A stretch of DNA of 64,000 bases, taken from a virus. The position numbers and the translations under genes were made by a program. Shown piece by piece: positions 14,186 through 54,712 of this stretch. Positions within the stretch are counted from its first letter, which is position 1; each line of letters begins with the position of its first letter. Location: IMG/VR virus record IMGVR_UViG_3300024581_002111, positions 14,309 to 78,308 of that record. One strand, written 5' to 3'. The notes under the pieces were generated by a model that was given only the letters and a program-made list of their open reading frames with translations, was not told the DNA's origin and searched no databases.

Positions 14186-14335
14186 TTAAAAAGAATGGAT
14201 ATACAAGAACCAATTAATAAGTGCGATCAAACCTGCTTGCATGGTCACTGCTCCTAACACCACACAAGTGGGGAAAATTGCATTAGCCTTTGCAGGGTTG
14301 TCTTTGACCCATTGTTCAAGTTCCTTCTCTGTCAC
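14186..14335 (-). CDS. 49-aa single-TM protein (not in track)
   Basis: GTG start: MTEKELEQWVKDNPAKANAIFPTCVVLGAVTMQAGLIALINWFLYIHSF. Confidence 0.55.
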   Translation of the reverse strand: MTEKELEQWVKDNPAKANAIFPTCVVLGAVTMQAGLIALINWFLYIHSF

Positions 14336-22974: not shown

Positions 22975-23472
22975 TTATTTTTTCTTTTTGCCTTCCATCA
23001 GTTTGACAGCGGCGTCATAATCTTTTTTAGTAATCACTTTTTCACGAAGCAGTTTGTCTCTGTTCACAAGGTGTTTGGCTTGTATCTCTTCTTTACTACC
23101 ACCAAAGTATGCCACAGCATGGCCTTCTTCTACCAGCACATCAGTTACCATTCTCCAAGCATCATGTTTGTGATCGTAACACTCAAAGTCACCCAAGATA
23201 CGACCAAACTTACCTTTCATGTCTTCGCCATCTTTGCTAACTTGTGTTTTGAGGATTGGTCCGCTTTTGCCGCCAATCAACTGCTTGAGTCTTTCTTTTG
23301 CGGCAGTGCCAAACAATTTTTCTACTTTGTCTCTGGTTCTGCTTTCTGGTGTGTCTATGCCCATTATGCGTACACGCTCATCTTTAAGCCATACACCGAA
23401 TCCCAAATCAATATCCACATCCACTGTGTCGCCATCAACTACCCTGATAACTTTACATCTATATTCATACAT
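22975..23472 (-). CDS. Thermonuclease (SNase-like) family nuclease
   Basis: RVVDGDTVDV, RVRIMGIDTPESR, KFGRILG, EGHAVAY. Confidence 0.85.
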   Translation of the reverse strand: MYEYRCKVIRVVDGDTVDVDIDLGFGVWLKDERVRIMGIDTPESRTRDKVEKLFGTAAKERLKQLIGGKSGPILKTQVSKDGEDMKGKFGRILGDFECYDHKHDAWRMVTDVLVEEGHAVAYFGGSKEEIQAKHLVNRDKLLREKVITKKDYDAAVKLMEGKKKK

Positions 23473-24454
23473 CTAAATCAAACTCCTTTCTTGCTACAAG
23501 TCTGTAGCGTGTTACTATGTTTCTTATTTTGTTATTTATAAGTTCTCGAGATTCATTTGACATGCTGTTACCATTTCTTACCCACTCTAACAGTGCATGC
23601 AAGTATTCTTTTTCACTTACACTGTGTCCGCTCATTATATTATCGTGCGGTGAATAACATTCGTTAAACACGCTTTCTATGATCACACCCGAAACAGCAA
23701 TGTTGCTTGCCTTGTTAACTTGTTCTTTTTCAAGGTGCCGCAGTTGTTTGAATAATTTTCTATCTAAATCAAGATAATCTCGTAAGCCATCAGAGTTTCT
23801 GTTGATGTGAGTTTCTAGTACATATTTAAACTTGTCCATCACTGACAACAAAGTAGGATCTTTTGTATGTCTACCGTAACCGTCATCAACAGAATTATGT
23901 TTTGGTATTTTAAAATCTGGCGGTAGATTGTGCACAGATCTTATCCAGTTGTCGAGATTGTCGATGTACAACAGTTCTGTGTTTGCTAACTCCCAATACA
24001 ATATCCAGATCACCAACATCACACGCTGTGTGTGATTGTTGTTCAGCCCAAACAACCATCCAGATAATTTAAAGATTTGAAACACAAAATTTCTGTACCA
24101 CTCTGAATCTTTTTTCTTCCAAAATTCTGCTCTTTGTTCCCCGTTGGTGCTTTCCCATGCAAGTAGGTCTAAGTTCTCAATTATCAAATAATTGAAACCA
24201 CTTATGTAACGTTTTACAGGATCTCTGTACAGCAAAGTGGTTGTGTACTCTGCTGGTATTAACTTGCGTGTAGCTGATAAGTCCAGATAATTTTCATGAG
24301 AATCAGAAACAATCTGTTTCCAACCGACAATGTTTTCGTGTGCTTGAGTTTTAATAGATGATTTCCAATCTAGTAGATTAGAAATTGTGGTGCCGGCAAC
24401 CTTGGGGTGTGTGATGAGGGCTCGACGTAGCTGATGATTGATGAATATGTGCAT
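23465..24454 (-). CDS. Sulfotransferase-2-like protein
   Basis: THPKVAGTTI (5'-PSB-like) and YRDPVKRYISG (3'-PB-like). Confidence 0.55.
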   Translation of the reverse strand: MHIFINHQLRRALITHPKVAGTTISNLLDWKSSIKTQAHENIVGWKQIVSDSHENYLDLSATRKLIPAEYTTTLLYRDPVKRYISGFNYLIIENLDLLAWESTNGEQRAEFWKKKDSEWYRNFVFQIFKLSGWLFGLNNNHTQRVMLVIWILYWELANTELLYIDNLDNWIRSVHNLPPDFKIPKHNSVDDGYGRHTKDPTLLSVMDKFKYVLETHINRNSDGLRDYLDLDRKLFKQLRHLEKEQVNKASNIAVSGVIIESVFNECYSPHDNIMSGHSVSEKEYLHALLEWVRNGNSMSNESRELINNKIRNIVTRYRLVARKEFDLDV

Positions 24455-24459
24455 TCATG

Positions 24460-24467
24460 TATTTATA
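24460..24467 (-). promoter_or_regulatory. Late promoter, 5 nt before ATG 24454
   Basis: TATAAATA-catga-ATG. Confidence 0.7.
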
Positions 24468-24468
24468 C

Positions 24469-25110
24469 TCACATACGATGGAAACAGTGATTATCTATCT
24501 GAGCTACTTCTTCGTAGTGCACTGCCCATTGCGGGCTAGCCAAGTTAGGATTGTAATAGTGCGTTGCACCATTGGTGTTGTCTGGAATGAGTCCTCTGAT
24601 GGTTAACAATGCTACTTCCAAACTCTGTTGCCATGCTTGTAAATTTTGTTTGATTGGGTTACCTTTGCTGTCGGTTAGGTGTATGGTATCACTTTTGCCA
24701 TCGCAAAACCAAGTGAACTGACACTTCCACTTCACAGGTACTAATTTGTCGTGATTCTCCTTCCACCAGCGTGAATATATAGCCTGCTCAACTACACCGC
24801 ACACGGTATTAGGGAAACGTGCATTATTAACTCTGTTCATGGTAACACTGGCCACAGCAATTTTGCCCTGCATGCTTTCGCCACGTGCTTCAAAGTAAAT
24901 ATTTTTTGCAAGACAGTGAACTTGGTCAACATCCAGTCCTGCATATGGATCAACTGGTTCTGGTGGAACAATTTCTATTGGTTCTGCTGTCACGGTCACC
25001 TGTGCTAATTCTTCAACCGTGACAGTTGCGGTGGGATTGTTTTGAAAGCCTATGTTATATCCAACTATCACTACAATGATGCTGAATAAAATCGACAACA
25101 GGTGTCTCAT
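24469..25110 (-). CDS. SleB-like cell-wall hydrolase (Hydrolase_2) with N-terminal TM/signal
   Basis: CLAKNIYFEARGES, VASVTMNRV, FPNTVCGVV, CQFTW, GATHYY, IDNHCF. Confidence 0.9.
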   Translation of the reverse strand: MRHLLSILFSIIVVIVGYNIGFQNNPTATVTVEELAQVTVTAEPIEIVPPEPVDPYAGLDVDQVHCLAKNIYFEARGESMQGKIAVASVTMNRVNNARFPNTVCGVVEQAIYSRWWKENHDKLVPVKWKCQFTWFCDGKSDTIHLTDSKGNPIKQNLQAWQQSLEVALLTIRGLIPDNTNGATHYYNPNLASPQWAVHYEEVAQIDNHCFHRM

Positions 25111-25119
25111 AATAACTCC

Positions 25120-25407
25120 TTAGACTAGTTTAAGGTCTGTGGTGTTTTCTGTGTATGCTTTTGCGATTTCTTCGTCGGTAGAAACAAATGCTACCACCGT
25201 GTTTTTATTTAGTTTAACTGATGCACTTTGAGATGTCATCATCCAAGGAATGATGCCCATGCCCTTTGGGCCTTGTGCTATAGTGGCAGGCTTATCCACA
25301 CATAATTCTAGATCTGTCTCAGAATCGTAGCGACACAATACTTCTTCACCGCTGGTTAACTTTACTGTGATAATCGAGCCTTTTGTTAAAGGTTTTTTTA
25401 ATAACAT
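25120..25407 (-). CDS. Phage Sm-like fold protein (paralog 1)
   Basis: ITVKLTSGEEVL...KP...IPW...VKLNKNTVV...IAKAY matches the cyanophage Sm-like pattern as I recall it. Confidence 0.6.
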   Translation of the reverse strand: MLLKKPLTKGSIITVKLTSGEEVLCRYDSETDLELCVDKPATIAQGPKGMGIIPWMMTSQSASVKLNKNTVVAFVSTDEEIAKAYTENTTDLKLV

Positions 25408-25430
25408 GTGTTATTCCTCATTATTTAATA

Positions 25431-25459
25431 ATTATATACGCATTTAATTGGTTTGTCAA
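25431..25459 (-). promoter_or_regulatory. sigma70-type promoter
   Basis: TTGACA-N17-TATAAT. Confidence 0.8.
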
Positions 25460-25523
25460 TCAAAATTTGGTCTATTTTTGCCGTATTTTCTATGTATTTG
25501 ATGTAAGACTAGTAAATATTAGT

Positions 25524-25643
25524 ATGGACAGGCACAGTTCAGTCTAACAAAATAATAGAGAGTTGCGTCAATCTTAGAATACGCTATATAGTGCAAGAGC
25601 ACTGCAACTCGAACTGTCCAGAATATGACGTGTGGCGCCACAC
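25524..25643 (+). ncRNA. Candidate late-expressed structured ncRNA
   Basis: AGTAAATA at 25511-18. Nested stems UGGACAG/CUGUCCA, GAGUUGC/GCAACUC and AGUGC/GCACU, a 3' hairpin GUGUG/CACAC, and only a 7-codon ORF. Confidence 0.45.
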
Positions 25644-25650
25644 TAATTAT

Positions 25651-26436
25651 TTACAGAAATATAGTTTCTTGTACCTCAGGCAATTGACCAGACGCTAGGT
25701 CTTTCATAAGTGCTAATCTATCATGACTACCTCGACTTCCGTGTATGTGTATAGCAAGCACATCCTTTAAGTCTATGGTGCCATTGAACTGATTGTTGGT
25801 ATACTGTCCTCCAGGTGTATACGGGGAGTGTAGCATTTGATATGCTAGTGGTGCTCGCCAAAAGTCTCCCACATGTGGGCTTTGACTCCACATCATTGCA
25901 TTGTAAACTATCTGTTCCGAATCCCAACGTTCTGGGTTCCAGTTGTCCAGCATTTCAAAACCAATGTCCCAAACACTCTGCATCATTTTATAAGGATAGT
26001 ATCTGATGCCGCAATTGAAAAAATGATCAAAAGAAATGTTGTAGTGATCGCAATGTGTTCTTGGTGGATCGGTAAGATTGTACATGGAGAACAAGTAAGT
26101 GGGCTCAAACCAAGTCCACGGCTTCATGAACACCACGTCTAGATCAGCATACAGTATGTTGTTGCCTTCAGACCAGAGATCATGTATCTCATAGAAATTT
26201 TGTTTGAATACGTCTCTGATGTTGTCTGCTTGACCTCTGAACACAACCACATCATCTAAACCGACTATGTTTTTTTCAGCAGTTGCTACGCAGATTTTTT
26301 CCATCTCTGCGTAGTTTTCAACTAAGTTGTTTTCATGACTGCGATCGTTGTACCACTTGGTGTGATCAGTGATGGTATAATTTTTAAGAACCAGAATGTT
26401 CTTTTTTGGCTTCCACCAAGGCTTAAAACTTATCAT
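25651..26436 (-). CDS. GT-A glycosyltransferase (nucleotide-diphospho-sugar transferase-like)
   Basis: ILYADLDVVF (DxD), FNCGI, DSEQ, HIHGSRG. Confidence 0.7.
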   Translation of the reverse strand: MISFKPWWKPKKNILVLKNYTITDHTKWYNDRSHENNLVENYAEMEKICVATAEKNIVGLDDVVVFRGQADNIRDVFKQNFYEIHDLWSEGNNILYADLDVVFMKPWTWFEPTYLFSMYNLTDPPRTHCDHYNISFDHFFNCGIRYYPYKMMQSVWDIGFEMLDNWNPERWDSEQIVYNAMMWSQSPHVGDFWRAPLAYQMLHSPYTPGGQYTNNQFNGTIDLKDVLAIHIHGSRGSHDRLALMKDLASGQLPEVQETIFL

Positions 26437-27073
26437 CGTATTTCCAGATGTTGTATTTGCCAATTGTGGCTACTTTGCTGTAGTTCAATGGCGTTAGCAC
26501 ATCATCTGTACGGTCATCATCCTCATGCTCAACTTTTATGCACACAACTGGTCTGTACAATTTGATAATATCCACAGATCCATCGAGAACATAGACTTCA
26601 AACCCTTCTACATCAATTTTGATAAAGTCAACACTTTGTTCAAAGTTGATGTCGTTGTCAAGTCCGCCGTCTTGTGCTAAAAAATCATCTAGGCATACTT
26701 GTGTGATTTTGTCCTCTGTGGGTTGTCTGACAACTTTGCCAGCACCTGAGTCTTCCTCGTCGATGAGTAAATCTGCTGATCCAAATCGCGGTCCAATAGC
26801 CAATCCGTGGTGCTCAATGTTGGGCTTGCCTGCTAAGTTAGCGTCCAAGCATTTGTACACATCGGGTACTGCTTCAAATGCAATCACTCTGTCAAAGTTA
26901 CCACACAGACGCTTGCTCCAGAATCCAACGTGTGCGCCCACATCAACTGCCACACTAAACTCGTCCAGCAGTTCTAGTACCTGTCTGTATTCTTCGATTT
27001 CGTATAACGGCTTATCAATAAATGCTTGACAAGTATCTGGGATAAGCATGTCTGAATCTTCAATTTTTTTCAT
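26423..27073 (-). CDS. FkbM-family methyltransferase
   Basis: VDVGAHVGFWS, AFEAVP, FIKIDVEGFE. Confidence 0.9.
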   Translation of the reverse strand: MKKIEDSDMLIPDTCQAFIDKPLYEIEEYRQVLELLDEFSVAVDVGAHVGFWSKRLCGNFDRVIAFEAVPDVYKCLDANLAGKPNIEHHGLAIGPRFGSADLLIDEEDSGAGKVVRQPTEDKITQVCLDDFLAQDGGLDNDINFEQSVDFIKIDVEGFEVYVLDGSVDIIKLYRPVVCIKVEHEDDDRTDDVLTPLNYSKVATIGKYNIWKYDDKF

Positions 27074-27102
27074 GTGTGTTCCTGTGTATGTGTTCTGTAT
27101 GA

Positions 27103-27110
27103 TATTTATA
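27103..27110 (-). promoter_or_regulatory. Late promoter
   Basis: TATAAATA, leader with AGGA. Confidence 0.65.
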
Positions 27111-27117
27111 AATTGTG

Positions 27118-27807
27118 CTAGAAGTCTTTCTGGAAGAATGGTCTTGTTTTTATGTATGCTATGAGGTCGTAATCTTGTTTGCGATACTCTTGTTCAAACC
27201 AAATACGATTCTGAGGAGAAATTTCATAGGACTGCTTTATTAAAAACAAATCTCTGCTTCTGCGCTTGAAAGGATCTGTGGGCATTTCAATATCATAAAT
27301 TGATTTCATTGCTTTGTTCATGTTGTTGATGTGAAATGCACTGATAACACGATGTTCGTTTTGTTGAAATTCTCCCAAACTGCCCAACCAAAAACACATA
27401 CTAGCAGTGAGTTCAAATAGACCCGGAGTACAATCCTGTGTCTGGCCGCCTTCTCGGATATAGGTGAGAAATTCGTTTGGTGTTTTGCAACGGTCTAAAA
27501 TATCTTCTTCTAAACTGCTGTATGCCTTATAGCCAAAACCTTTTACATCTTTATACTTTGTTTTGCTTAACTCCTGTCTTGCTGGCATAGTAACACGTTC
27601 CCAGAATCCACTGCAAAATCTATCCCACGGGTGCCTCACTATAAAACATGCATTGTTCATGCGATCGAGCTTTTGATTGTGCCCAGCGTTTGGCATCTGT
27701 ATTTTTGGTTGAGGTTTTTGTTGCTTGTTGTGTTCGTCTATCACATATTTTAATGCAGTGCCGCCGGTTTTAGGAATGTGTAAGTAGTTATGCGTTTCCC
27801 TGATCAT
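27118..27807 (-). CDS. Sulfotransferase family 2 protein
   Basis: LHIPKTGGTAL, VRHPWDRFCSGF. Confidence 0.75.
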   Translation of the reverse strand: MIRETHNYLHIPKTGGTALKYVIDEHNKQQKPQPKIQMPNAGHNQKLDRMNNACFIVRHPWDRFCSGFWERVTMPARQELSKTKYKDVKGFGYKAYSSLEEDILDRCKTPNEFLTYIREGGQTQDCTPGLFELTASMCFWLGSLGEFQQNEHRVISAFHINNMNKAMKSIYDIEMPTDPFKRRSRDLFLIKQSYEISPQNRIWFEQEYRKQDYDLIAYIKTRPFFQKDF

Positions 27808-32930: not shown

Positions 32931-32966
32931 CACTGGTAAATAGACACATCAAAAAGGAGACACACA

Positions 32967-33151: not shown

Positions 33152-34072
33152 ATGAAGATTTCAGATTTCTCTGAGAAGATAGATCTAAAAAAAGCAGACA
33201 TGGGCGATGTAGTAACAGACTTTTACAAGTCTGATGCTCCACAGTTCATTGGCAAAAGCAAAAAGAAAAGACGACAAATGGCTATTGCGGCCAAGTTGTC
33301 TGCTAACGAGTCTACAGGTGATCTACACGATAGATTATACGATTTGGAAGCCGCACTGAGAAGTGCTAGAGAAATCACAAAGCAAATCAAATACGCTGAC
33401 ACCCACATGACTGTAATTGGTGAACTAGAAGCACTAGCAGAAAAAGTTGGCCTCAAGTTAGACGACTATGATGTGCGTCAAGTTTATCAAGCAAACAACA
33501 ATTTAGAAAGTGCTGTATACGAATTAGAAGCCGCTTTTGAAGAAGCAATCAGAGATATCCAAAACCAAATTGACGATGCCGAATATGAAGAGAGCGCACC
33601 CGAAGGTCCATATCCAAGCCAGATGAGCGATGCAGAACTAGCAGATTATATTGGTGCTAGTGAAGAGGAAGTTCGTGCAGACAGAGAAGGCGCAGAAGAA
33701 GTTGCAAACGACAAGAGTCGCGATTATATGCACGAAGAAGACGAATCAACGTTTGAGTGCGACGATGAGTTTTTTGAAGCCTTTGGATGGATTGAAGATA
33801 ATTTAGAAGAAGCAGAATACAGAGGACGCAAAGTCAAACTTAACAAGCCTATGCAAGGCGATGTTAAAAAATTCAAAGTGTATGTGAAAGATCCTAAAAC
33901 TGGCAATGTGAAAAAAGTAAACTTTGGTCACGGCGGTAGCAGTGTCAAAGGCAAAGCAATGAAGATTCGTAAAAACAATCCTAAGGCTCGCAAGAGTTTC
34001 CGTGCTAGACACAACTGCGATAATCCAGGGCCAAAAACAAAGGCACGTTACTGGTCTTGTAGGAAGTGGTAG
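33152..34072 (+). CDS. Modular internal-head-type protein with DUF6321-like basic C-terminus (from recollection)
   Basis: SDAPQF.GKSK..R..MAIAA module and KFKVYVKDPKTGNVKKVNFG...SFRARHNC...ARYWSC. Confidence 0.65.
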   Translation: MKISDFSEKIDLKKADMGDVVTDFYKSDAPQFIGKSKKKRRQMAIAAKLSANESTGDLHDRLYDLEAALRSAREITKQIKYADTHMTVIGELEALAEKVGLKLDDYDVRQVYQANNNLESAVYELEAAFEEAIRDIQNQIDDAEYEESAPEGPYPSQMSDAELADYIGASEEEVRADREGAEEVANDKSRDYMHEEDESTFECDDEFFEAFGWIEDNLEEAEYRGRKVKLNKPMQGDVKKFKVYVKDPKTGNVKKVNFGHGGSSVKGKAMKIRKNNPKARKSFRARHNCDNPGPKTKARYWSCRKW

Positions 34073-49062: not shown

Positions 49063-49138
<76 letters not shown>

Positions 49139-49146
49139 ACTGATAT

Positions 49147-49154
49147 TATTTACT
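49147..49154 (-). promoter_or_regulatory. Late-type promoter of the tRNA cluster
   Basis: AGTAAATA, 8 nt before the 5' end of tRNA-Thr. Confidence 0.55.
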
Positions 49155-53071: not shown

Positions 53072-54123
53072 TCCACAAAATAACTTTGTGTATCTCGATT
53101 TTCTAAAAATTCTTTATTAAACATTTGAGCATAATACAGCATCTTTAGTTTGTAAGTTTCATAAGGCTTAAAGTTCTGCACAGTTCTGTTATTAGCAGTC
53201 CAGTCAGGCGAAAGCATGTTAATGAACATGGAGTACTGTTCGCTGTTGGTTGTAACATGCCCTGTGGGTGTGATATGATAATCTAATAGATCAATATTAA
53301 ATTGTTGATCTAAAGTTTCGTATTCATGTAATCTAGAAACCATTGGTCGTTCTAGTACACTTCTGCCTTCTATGCGTTTGATGTATGTACGGAGACTTTT
53401 ATAGTTTTCTAATCGGCGTGTTAACGGCACAGGCTCTAAGTTGCTGTATTCTTCTTTGAGGTCATGGAATTGATTAATTTCATTGATGCTACCATAGTTA
53501 ATATCCAGCATGTCAGTTTCTAGGTCGTGCGGGATAACATCATATAACCAGTTGCCGTGCTGATCGATAATACAGGAACCTTCTACATCATTTTTGATAC
53601 CCGGAGTAAACTTTATTTTGATATTGCGTTTTTTGCAAAAGCGCAGTATATTAGGAACTTGGTGTTTGTTGTGCTCGTAAACAAAAAACTCCACCATTGC
53701 ATTGCTTTTGATATCGTTTAACAATCCAGCAACGTCTCCCCATTTAACCCCTTGAAATATCTTACCGCACATATCTCTATAACCATCTAAGTAAACATGC
53801 AACATACTTTTATGTGTCTTTATCATGTTTGCTAAACGTAAATCGATCATACCATAAGTTGTAACAGTGAGGCCACTGCCCACCAATTTAGATATGCGTG
53901 TTACATCAGGCCACAGTGCGGCATCACCGTACGCACTTTTAAGATATATGGGTCTATCGAATAGGAAAAAGCCTTCACTGATGCTGTCTAGTGCATGTAA
54001 TACTTTTTCTAATGGAATGTCTACTTCAGGATATGTTCGCTTGCCCCAGCGATGCATAATCCACTGACCTTGTGCACTCAGTGGATTGTATATGTTATTT
54101 CTTGTGGTAGGATCAATTATCAC
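53068..54123 (-). CDS. Degenerate radical-SAM-like protein
   Basis: YGDA..WP, LDG, GVKW, FFVYEHNKHQV resemble the phage radical-SAM core, but there is no CxxxCxxC. Confidence 0.4.
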   Translation of the reverse strand: MIIDPTTRNNIYNPLSAQGQWIMHRWGKRTYPEVDIPLEKVLHALDSISEGFFLFDRPIYLKSAYGDAALWPDVTRISKLVGSGLTVTTYGMIDLRLANMIKTHKSMLHVYLDGYRDMCGKIFQGVKWGDVAGLLNDIKSNAMVEFFVYEHNKHQVPNILRFCKKRNIKIKFTPGIKNDVEGSCIIDQHGNWLYDVIPHDLETDMLDINYGSINEINQFHDLKEEYSNLEPVPLTRRLENYKSLRTYIKRIEGRSVLERPMVSRLHEYETLDQQFNIDLLDYHITPTGHVTTNSEQYSMFINMLSPDWTANNRTVQNFKPYETYKLKMLYYAQMFNKEFLENRDTQSYFVD

Positions 54124-54434
54124 TCTGCTTCTTCGTCAACGATGGTTGGAGGTAATCTATCCTTTAGTATACCAGTGTAATCGCTGGCGCTCTCAGGAAG
54201 TGTTTTAGTGACAAACAGCAGGCTGTCCATCCTCACTGTGATCATCTCGGCTTTCGCTGAAAAGCAGACAGGTCCAATAATAACATCAGGACCGTTAATT
54301 AAAACTGCCATCGGCTCTTTGAGTGTGAGCATTTTGTTATCACTGTCAACAGATGCCAATGTGGCAATTAATTCATCGCCGGTGATTGTTTTGATTGTAA
54401 CAATCTTGCCAGCTAATTCTTCTATGTCGTACAT
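54120..54434 (-). CDS. Phage Sm-like fold protein (paralog 2)
   Basis: IVTIKTITGDELIA...LKEP...SDY. Confidence 0.55.
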   Translation of the reverse strand: MYDIEELAGKIVTIKTITGDELIATLASVDSDNKMLTLKEPMAVLINGPDVIIGPVCFSAKAEMITVRMDSLLFVTKTLPESASDYTGILKDRLPPTIVDEEAE

Positions 54435-54712
54435 CAAATAGTTCCTAGTGTGCTGGTGTCTACTGTGTTTTTCTCAACTAAGATTTTTAAATCTTCCGGA
54501 CCAATTGCTTTCATACCTGTGTATCCGCCTTCTAAGCATTCGCCATTGATATACACCTGGGGCATTGTTCTATGCCCTTCGCTGATAATAAATTCGTATG
54601 CGTCAGAATCATTCTCGATGTTGACTTCCTCAAACGGTATGTCGTATGTTTTACACATGGTTTTTGCTTGAATGCAATAACTGCAATTATTCTTTGAATA
54701 AATCTTTAACAT
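54434..54712 (-). CDS. Glutaredoxin
   Basis: CSYC, TMPQVY, GGYT, adjacent to nrdB. Confidence 0.9.
   Translation of the reverse strand: MLKIYSKNNCSYCIQAKTMCKTYDIPFEEVNIENDSDAYEFIISEGHRTMPQVYINGECLEGGYTGMKAIGPEDLKILVEKNTVDTSTLGTI

Follow-up and report, generated by a model that had tools for sequence, protein, structure and literature searches.

A 243-nt gap in the genome of an uncultured virus, bordered on both sides by genes of the minus strand, raises the question of whether the interval encodes a functional RNA and, if so, from which strand this RNA is produced and how it acts. The gap is located in a stretch of 64,000 nucleotides (positions 14,309 to 78,308 of the IMG/VR virus record IMGVR_UViG_3300024581_002111), hereafter designated the window. 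A preliminary description, made from the letters of this stretch, had proposed that the gap contains a late structured RNA whose closing stem starts at the first transcribed base. We report that positions 25511-25652 read, on the plus strand, as a conserved folded RNA gene of an uncatalogued family, devoid of any open reading frame (ORF). We consider it probable that the element is an independent small RNA gene of the plus strand, with a late-type promoter and a terminator shared with a converging gene, and that its product is a folded RNA acting in trans.

An uncatalogued family of folded RNA genes

Eight related loci were reached via the protein encoded by c2, the gene adjacent to the element. 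In these loci, the gap upstream of c2 could be aligned to that of the window far above expectation from the 55-61% identity of the neighbour proteins. Scans of viral and metagenome contigs with DNA patterns returned 45, 64, and 57 matches, which were reduced to 60 distinct elements following removal of chance matches in coding regions (alignment A3, gathered by patterns that demanded the motif CUA-N-AUAG). A covariance model (R1) added four sequences, the divergent group L179-L184, and the realigned set (A5) comprised 64 sequences, of which 62 were distinct. The homologues originate exclusively from uncultured phage contigs and metagenomes. According to the covariance model, the window harbors a single copy (25510-25660, plus strand, 116.7 bits). 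No copy was detected in 50,697 cultured phage records, where blastn with two queries, the window region and a consensus-like member of the family, gave chance matches only, nor in a pattern scan of 185,579 prokaryote species, each represented by one genome. The sole pattern match in the prokaryote genomes was located within a coding region, scored 13.5 bits with the model, and was judged to be due to chance.

Rfam 15 (4227 models) gave no match for positions 25300-25800, even at E <= 10, and no match at E <= 1 for seven loci carrying other variants of the element. Over the entire window, the same library identified three tRNAs and nothing else. A conserved open frame was not found in the element, the longest stop-free stretch in any frame being 25-50 codons. 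The empty Rfam scan and the 64 homologues agree with the earlier proposal of a stand-alone structured RNA belonging to no recognised family.

The 145-nt stretch folds better than its shuffled versions on both strands (z = -2.9 and -2.8). In the 62 distinct homologues, 93.6% of the modelled pair cells of four helices are canonical, versus 23-44% if the partners are slid. Both-side changes were observed in 57 cells, versus 14 in shuffles, and the covariation score was 0.208, versus 0.092 in shuffles; the observed values were reached by none of the 500 shuffles, a count that overstates independence since the homologues are kin. The slid controls and the four-way variation of helix P2 described below carry weight regardless of kinship because neither depends on the independence of the sequences. 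Thus, the compensatory changes that the preliminary description had named as a check on the proposed RNA are present in the family.

As shown by comparison of the homologues, the RNA is predicted to form a compact multi-helix junction made of P1, P1b, P2, and P3 (Table 1). P2, which had escaped the preliminary description as had P1b, is the best-supported helix. Its second pair is found in all four Watson-Crick forms (CG 49, GC 6, AU 4, and UA 3) and its third pair in two (GC 58 and CG 4). The P2 loop is near-invariant, C(CC/AA)UCUUAG.AU, with an almost fixed core, UCUUAG.A. The closing stem that had been placed at the predicted start corresponds to P1, with its fixed spacing to the upstream box. 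P1 is lengthened in one clade (GUUGGACAG/CUGU(N)CCAAC) and contains two G·U pairs in L179-L184. In P1b, alignment pair 31-114 occurs as GC (23), UA (17), or AU (8) and pair 32-113 as UA (49) or GC (5), a fourth pair being possible through A25536. The hairpin AGUGC-AAGA-GCACU (25590-25603), also noticed previously, is conserved as P3. The P3 stems are group-specific yet complementary (GUGC/GCAC, GUAGC/GCUGC, GUUC/GAAC, GAAG/CUUC, and GCAG/CUGC), and the variation of the U·G/U-A pairs at its base is limited to the purine side.

Table 1. Features of the element and of its immediate surroundings, in coordinates of the window.
Feature	Position	Strand	Description
c2 (Sm-like)	25120-25407	-	95 amino acids; divergent from the RNA gene
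Sigma-70 promoter of c2	25431-25459	-	TTGACA-17-TATAAT, 12/12 consensus; kept in nearest relatives
Promoter-like box AGTAAATA, core TAAATA	25511-25518	+	TAAATA invariant in 64/64 homologues
Predicted transcription start	25524-25525	+	Deduced from spacing of the box to leaderless ATGs and tRNA 5' ends
P1, closing stem	UGGACAG 25525-31 / CUGUCCA 25614-20	+	96.5% of cells paired; GC/UA/GU, GC/AU/GU, AU/GU
P1b	GUU 25537-39 / AAC 25606-08	+	86.8% of cells paired, weakest helix
Junction	25540-25564	+	Near-invariant GUCUAAC (most sequences), then variable A/U-rich linker
P2 hairpin	GCGU 25565-68 / ACGC 25581-84	+	100% of cells paired; 12-nt loop CAAUCUUAGAAU
Junction UAUA	25585-25588	+	Within conserved CUA.AUAG
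P3 hairpin	UAGUGC-AAGA-GCACUG, 25589-25604	+	Hairpin in nearly all homologues
Linker before terminator	25621-25629	+	Single-stranded, A/U-rich; length and sequence vary among homologues
Palindrome GTGTGGCGCCACAC, putative terminator hairpin	25630-25643	both	Perfect palindrome; shared with converging c3
U-rich tail UAAUUAUUU	25644-25652	+	From terminator scan; imperfect; predicted 3' end region
c3	25651-26463	-	270 amino acids; without family match; converges on the RNA gene

The single strands between the helices are strongly conserved, namely GUCUAAC, the P2 loop, CUA.AUAG, and CAA. The linker that follows GUCUAAC is frequently U-rich (AAUGUUUUUUG in the largest group). All 60 sequences of A3 contain the motif CUA-N-AUAG, as required by the patterns used to gather them, and two of the four additional sequences found by the model depart from it (CUAGAAUAG). 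Extra or alternative junction pairings, such as GAGUU/AACUC, are possible in some lineages including that of the window, and the fine structure given here for the junction is provisional. A pairing of GUCUAAC with the UCUUAG loop, which would extend the UCUA/UAGA stem of the preliminary description, was considered and rejected, the variants GUUCGAC and GUCCACC being uncompensated.

All the motifs of the preliminary description exist in the window where it had placed them, including AGTAAATA at 25511-18 and, further on, A25524. Some of the pairings that it had built from these motifs did not extend to the family. GAGUUGC/GCAACUC (25560-66/25604-10), proposed as a nested stem, can form only in the window and in its closest relative, L101, and overlaps P2 by 2 nt. 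The short stem between UCUA (25543-46) and UAGA (25556-59) falls in the variable linker and lacks conservation. For ACAGUUC/GAACUGU (25534-40/25611-17), the alternative register that had suggested switching, the bases involved hardly vary, and the L005 group lacks this register.

Putative promoter and terminator of the RNA gene

The distance between TAAATA and P1 differs by at most 1 nt across the homologues, P1 beginning 6-7 nt past the box. We infer that this box drives the element as a late-type promoter, from which transcription would start 6-7 nt further on, at the first base of P1, and presumably late in infection. The sequence ATAAATA was observed 34 times in the window, versus about 22 expected. 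Most of these boxes are intergenic, 5-80 nt before a correctly oriented gene, and several are located exactly 5 nt before a leaderless ATG. The box of the element reads [G/T]TAAATA, the A of ATAAATA being replaced by G, T, or C (C once) in all 64 homologues.

This core is also found ahead of tRNA genes. Where tRNA genes are clustered in this phage and in three of its relatives, the leading gene is preceded by NNTAAATA, whose last base is 7-8 nt away from the mature 5' end and whose second position can be A, G, T, or C. The window provides an example with a tRNA-Thr gene (49063-49138, minus strand), for which AGTAAATA is found at -8 (box 49147-49153, minus strand). The TAAATA core therefore appears to be used, at a spacing of 7-8 nt, for stable RNA genes in this clade. 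Cluster-heading tRNA genes with the NNTAAATA box were also seen in L145, L147, L152, L153, and L155. The leader predicted for cluster-heading tRNAs transcribed from such late-type promoters is 0-2 nt long, which is unusual, and the need for RNase P at these genes therefore comes into question. Another GTAAATA box (32936-32942, plus strand), followed by AAGGAG, is located in a 220-nt gap before the gene starting at 33152 and may drive a small ORF that was not called.

The T4-type late promoter TATAAATA, which depends on gp55, resembles the box of the element by its TAAATA core and by the lack of a -35 element. Its start, approximately 6-7 nt downstream, is consistent with the spacing of the boxes to tRNA 5' ends and to leaderless ATGs. 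The box of the element differs at the second position by G or T (once C) in place of the A that precedes protein genes. A second late-like box (TGTAAATA, 25655-48, reverse) had been taken to allow an antisense partner; this box is absent from the homologues, shares bases with the stop codon of c3, and gives no indication of such a partner.

The 3' hairpin (25630-43), already part of the preliminary description, proved to be both conserved and covarying. A perfect palindrome of 10-24 nt occupies this site in 54 of the 62 homologues (length table), with flanks that covary. The centre of the hairpin is GGCGCC in 40 of the 62 sequences and of the GGCC type in most others. The window contains 14 long palindromes, of which only that of 25630-43, an intergenic one, has a GGCGCC centre. 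The T content is about equal on either side of the hairpin, which was scored as terminator-like on the plus strand by a terminator scan. We read this hairpin as a putative bidirectional terminator common to the RNA gene and c3. Transcription would stop there to yield a product of ~130 nt, whose 3' end is approximate because the U tracts are weak. The loop of the hairpin is self-complementary, so that either strand would fold into the same hairpin, or two RNA molecules could dimerise through their loops.

Three metatranscriptome runs (X18, X19, and X20) contain small parts of the stretch, among them parts of c3 in all three, at a depth of 2-4. The metatranscriptome contigs carry neither strand nor end information and weigh neither for nor against a discrete RNA, and the parts that they leave uncovered provide no evidence.

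The Sm-like neighbour and the mode of action

Our best guess is that the element produces a trans-acting RNA or the scaffold of a ribonucleoprotein. The RNA would work in trans as a folded recognition surface, and not as a cis regulator. The invariant nucleotides, distributed among the loop and the strands of the junction with short covarying helices between them, resemble a folded surface for recognition more than a linear seed, and a trans-acting, protein-bound RNA is therefore favoured. Scattered short conserved single strands are more typical of protein-bound or tertiary-folded RNAs than of small RNAs (sRNAs) that pair through a seed. The leading candidate for a partner would be the product of c2, and the A/U-rich linkers located beside P2 and before the terminator hairpin may be counterparts of Sm/Hfq binding sites, which they resemble.

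The profile of c2 matched PDB entry 3BY7 over nearly its full length (E = 1.9e-7, about 21% identity). The AlphaFold model of c2 (pLDDT 76) displays five beta strands and, after them, a helix at the C-terminus, and Foldseek comparison of this model retrieved 3BY7 as the top match (TM 0.69/0.79), then archaeal and eukaryotic Sm/LSm proteins, with a probability of 1.00. Based on this model, c2 is predicted to have an Sm/LSm fold. The match of c2 to the Pfam family Sm_like (PF16243) remained under the gathering cut-off of 29.4 bits (14.2 bits, E = 0.052). The protein of entry 3BY7 is an Sm-like pentamer of putative cyanophage origin, the function of which is not known (PMC3710371; PMC12152347), and it has likewise been described as five beta strands plus a C-terminal helix (PMC12152347). 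The nearest relatives of c2 in cultured phages are found in Methylophilales phages only, with 27% identity.

A c2-type ORF is divergent from the element within 1.1 kb in 72 of the 73 element loci with enough flank, and the conserved gene order is c3, RNA, c2, and cell-wall hydrolase. A second Sm-like paralogue of 105 amino acids (54120-54437, minus strand) ends the nrdA-nrdB-glutaredoxin operon of the window. This paralogue matched the c2 profile by hhalign (94.9% probability, E = 4.5e-8) and gave a weak match to Pfam LSM12_LSM. In distant phages, the slot of this paralogue in the operon is filled by a c2-type gene translationally coupled to glutaredoxin. In comparison with the 3BY7 family, which is elsewhere mostly fused to a glutaredoxin gene, c2 is free-standing, is preceded by a sigma-70 consensus promoter, and lies beside an RNA gene. 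These comparisons are suggestive of the relocation, in this clade, of one Sm-like copy to the vicinity of the RNA gene, where it would have gained its own consensus promoter. The sigma-70 promoter of c2 implies strong early expression by the host polymerase.

The gap could have been conserved as DNA, in the form of a control region shared by divergent and convergent genes and comprising operators, promoter elements, and a bidirectional terminator, with no functional RNA. Two signals in the gap fit this view, namely the 12/12 sigma-70 promoter and the terminator, which as DNA is a perfect palindrome and in many homologues has GGCGCC at its centre. We consider this explanation to be extremely improbable, since pairs separated by 90 nt vary on both sides without losing complementarity, which is seen in four helices and is not how protein-binding sites behave. 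One base pair moreover occurs in each of the four Watson-Crick forms, the restriction of variation to purines opposite U (U·G/U-A) is a mark of RNA, and the flanks of the palindrome covary as in a hairpin. A second explanation retains a functional RNA and assigns it to the minus strand, as a structured 3' untranslated region of c3 or a read-through leader of c2 that would act in cis on stability, termination, or translation. Both flanking genes belong to this strand, a metatranscriptome contig extends from the interior of the element through the hairpin into the gene 25651-26463, and the minimum free energy (MFE) of single sequences is slightly better on the minus strand. Other evidence on the strand was drawn on because Watson-Crick covariation is strand-neutral. 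In the helix cells, G·U or U·G was found 76 times and A·C or C·A 8 times (15 versus 0 in P1 plus P2 alone), which favours the plus strand, although most of the G·U cells belong to P3, a helix with a register fixed by the model, and to sequences that are akin, and thus represent few events. The RNAalifold consensus was -24.6 for the plus strand versus -22.3 for the minus strand, P3 being unable to form in the latter fold, and several P3 loops read as a GAAA tetraloop on the plus strand. On the minus strand, the element is downstream of the terminator hairpin and upstream of the perfect sigma-70 promoter of c2; a transcript started at this promoter, which sits between c2 and the element, would not include the element. 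A minus-strand RNA would also leave the invariant TAAATA, with its fixed spacing, without a role. Finally, the element survives changes on both sides. In L047, the gene located on its other side, away from c2, is replaced by a different gene. In L179-L184, the RNA and c2 are separated by an inserted small ORF with the same orientation as the RNA, which retains its own box (c2 at 1201-1485, RNA at about 600-760, and small ORF upstream of c2 on the opposite strand). The functional strand is therefore very probably the plus strand, as judged from these sequence comparisons, and we regard the minus-strand explanation as very unlikely. The inserted ORF of L179-L184 has its own CTTAAATA box and an AGGAGG ribosome site.

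A riboswitch or cis-acting leader would belong to the 5' untranslated region that precedes a same-strand gene, a position that the element does not occupy. On the plus strand, the element is followed by the terminator and then by the antisense of c3; on the minus strand, the terminator precedes the element and the next gene lies beyond a perfect promoter. The main alternative mechanism is that of a base-pairing sRNA of the plus strand. Its P2 loop, which is rich in pyrimidines (most members have UCCCUCUUAG), would bind Shine-Dalgarno-like CUAAGAGGGA in host or phage mRNAs and tune or block their translation, possibly with the help of an Sm/Hfq-type chaperone. The P2 loop is indeed single-stranded, near-invariant, and C/U-rich, the succession of promoter, seed, A/U-rich stretch, and terminator resembles that of Hfq-dependent sRNAs, and an Sm-like gene adjoins. 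However, only UCUUAG is constant in the loop since CAAU replaces CCUC in five lineages, the window and four others, and conservation extends over several junction strands rather than a single seed. RNAduplex comparison with all translation start regions of the window revealed nothing outstanding (best value for the loop, -9.8 kcal/mol), pairing with the c2 start region was not in excess of that of shuffles (-12.5 versus -11.4), and neither the P2 loop nor the junction strand has an extended complement elsewhere in the window. We consider the base-pairing mechanism to be unlikely. The more specific proposal that the RNA and a pentameric c2 form a viral Sm-RNA particle, a phage small nuclear ribonucleoprotein ('snRNP') that would affect translation or the metabolism of RNA, of the host or of the phage, during late infection, is distinctly unlikely.

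Several observations weigh against an independent plus-strand gene producing a trans-acting RNA with an Sm-like partner. The MFE of single sequences averaged -19.9 for the plus strand and -20.8 for the minus strand, the plus strand being the more stable in only 18 of the 62 homologues. The strength and timing of the promoter are uncertain because G or T replaces the A of the gene promoters (NATAAATA). The U tracts past the hairpin are short and interrupted, with a mean longest run of ~3 on both strands. The sole metatranscriptome contig over the element (25550-25712, depth 3.6) is strandless and crosses the hairpin into c3, which fits read-through from either side or DNA carry-over. No base-pairing target for the RNA was found in the window or in the translation start region of c2. 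The association of the RNA with the Sm-like gene comes from synteny within one clade. In more distant phages, the c2-type genes are fused behind a glutaredoxin gene, mostly without such an RNA upstream. The strict core of the element was present upstream of distant c2-type genes in only 7 of 77 distinct loci, and the model detected the RNA in 11 of 80 fetched c2-type loci, in four cases behind a small inserted ORF.

Genomic setting and comparison with known systems

The viral contig that holds the window is 82 kb long, with a CheckV completeness of 24%. Three related contigs of 86-98 kb have a completeness of 25-27%, and one of them carries 32 tRNA genes. The large subunit of the ribonucleotide reductase encoded by the window is nearest to those of jumbo phages of ~350 kb (XaC1, GAP32, and Munch, for example), and the element was therefore assigned to uncultured jumbo phages of this size. 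The RNA family appears to be confined to a clade of such uncultured aquatic phages, with genomes of ~350 kb.

The block of minus-strand genes around the RNA (23465-27807) likely consists of glycan-modifying genes, with two sulfotransferase-like genes, one FkbM-type methyltransferase gene, and c3 (25651-26463), whose product contains a DLD motif, as is usual in nucleotide-sugar transferases. The gene after c2 (24469-25110) encodes a cell-wall hydrolase of the SleB type. PHROG and Pfam scans of the neighbour genes indicated an RNA-related function for none except c2.

Giant phages prove to hold many structured RNAs of unclear role. Among these, the element described here is small, sharply defined, and strongly covarying. 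Its constant placement by an Sm-like gene copy that may have been relocated suggests an RNA-protein pair that can be tested directly. If a phage 'snRNP' were formed, it would provide the large Sm-like family of ocean phages, whose structure (3BY7) has been without a known ligand since 2008, with its first cognate RNA and its first functional handle. More generally, the stable RNAs of this clade, tRNAs included, would be driven from late-type TAAATA boxes, with a predicted start at the mature 5' end or within 1-2 bases of it.

The element shares several features with the sRNAs that depend on Hfq or Sm proteins: a length of about 100-130 nt, a promoter and a terminator hairpin that would be its own, A/U-rich single strands beside stem-loops, an exposed C/U-rich loop, and an adjoining Sm-fold gene. 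It differs from these sRNAs by the distribution of its conserved nucleotides over a multi-helix junction, by a poor U tail, and by the lack of a target among the start regions of the window. In addition, c2 is of the pentameric phage Sm-like type (3BY7) and not an Hfq, its binding to the RNA being only proposed.

Stand-alone structured RNAs of unknown function were reportedly described in phages and marine metagenomes by Weinberg et al. in 2010, the examples being manA (RF01745), GOLLD (RF01998), and ROOL (RF03087). The element is similarly devoid of ORFs, conserved by covariation, present in large phages, and built from short helices around conserved junction and loop nucleotides. It matches none of the three in sequence or structure and is much smaller than GOLLD and ROOL. 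It is further distinguished from all of them by a putative late-type promoter box of its own, placed so that transcription would begin at the first base of the closing stem.

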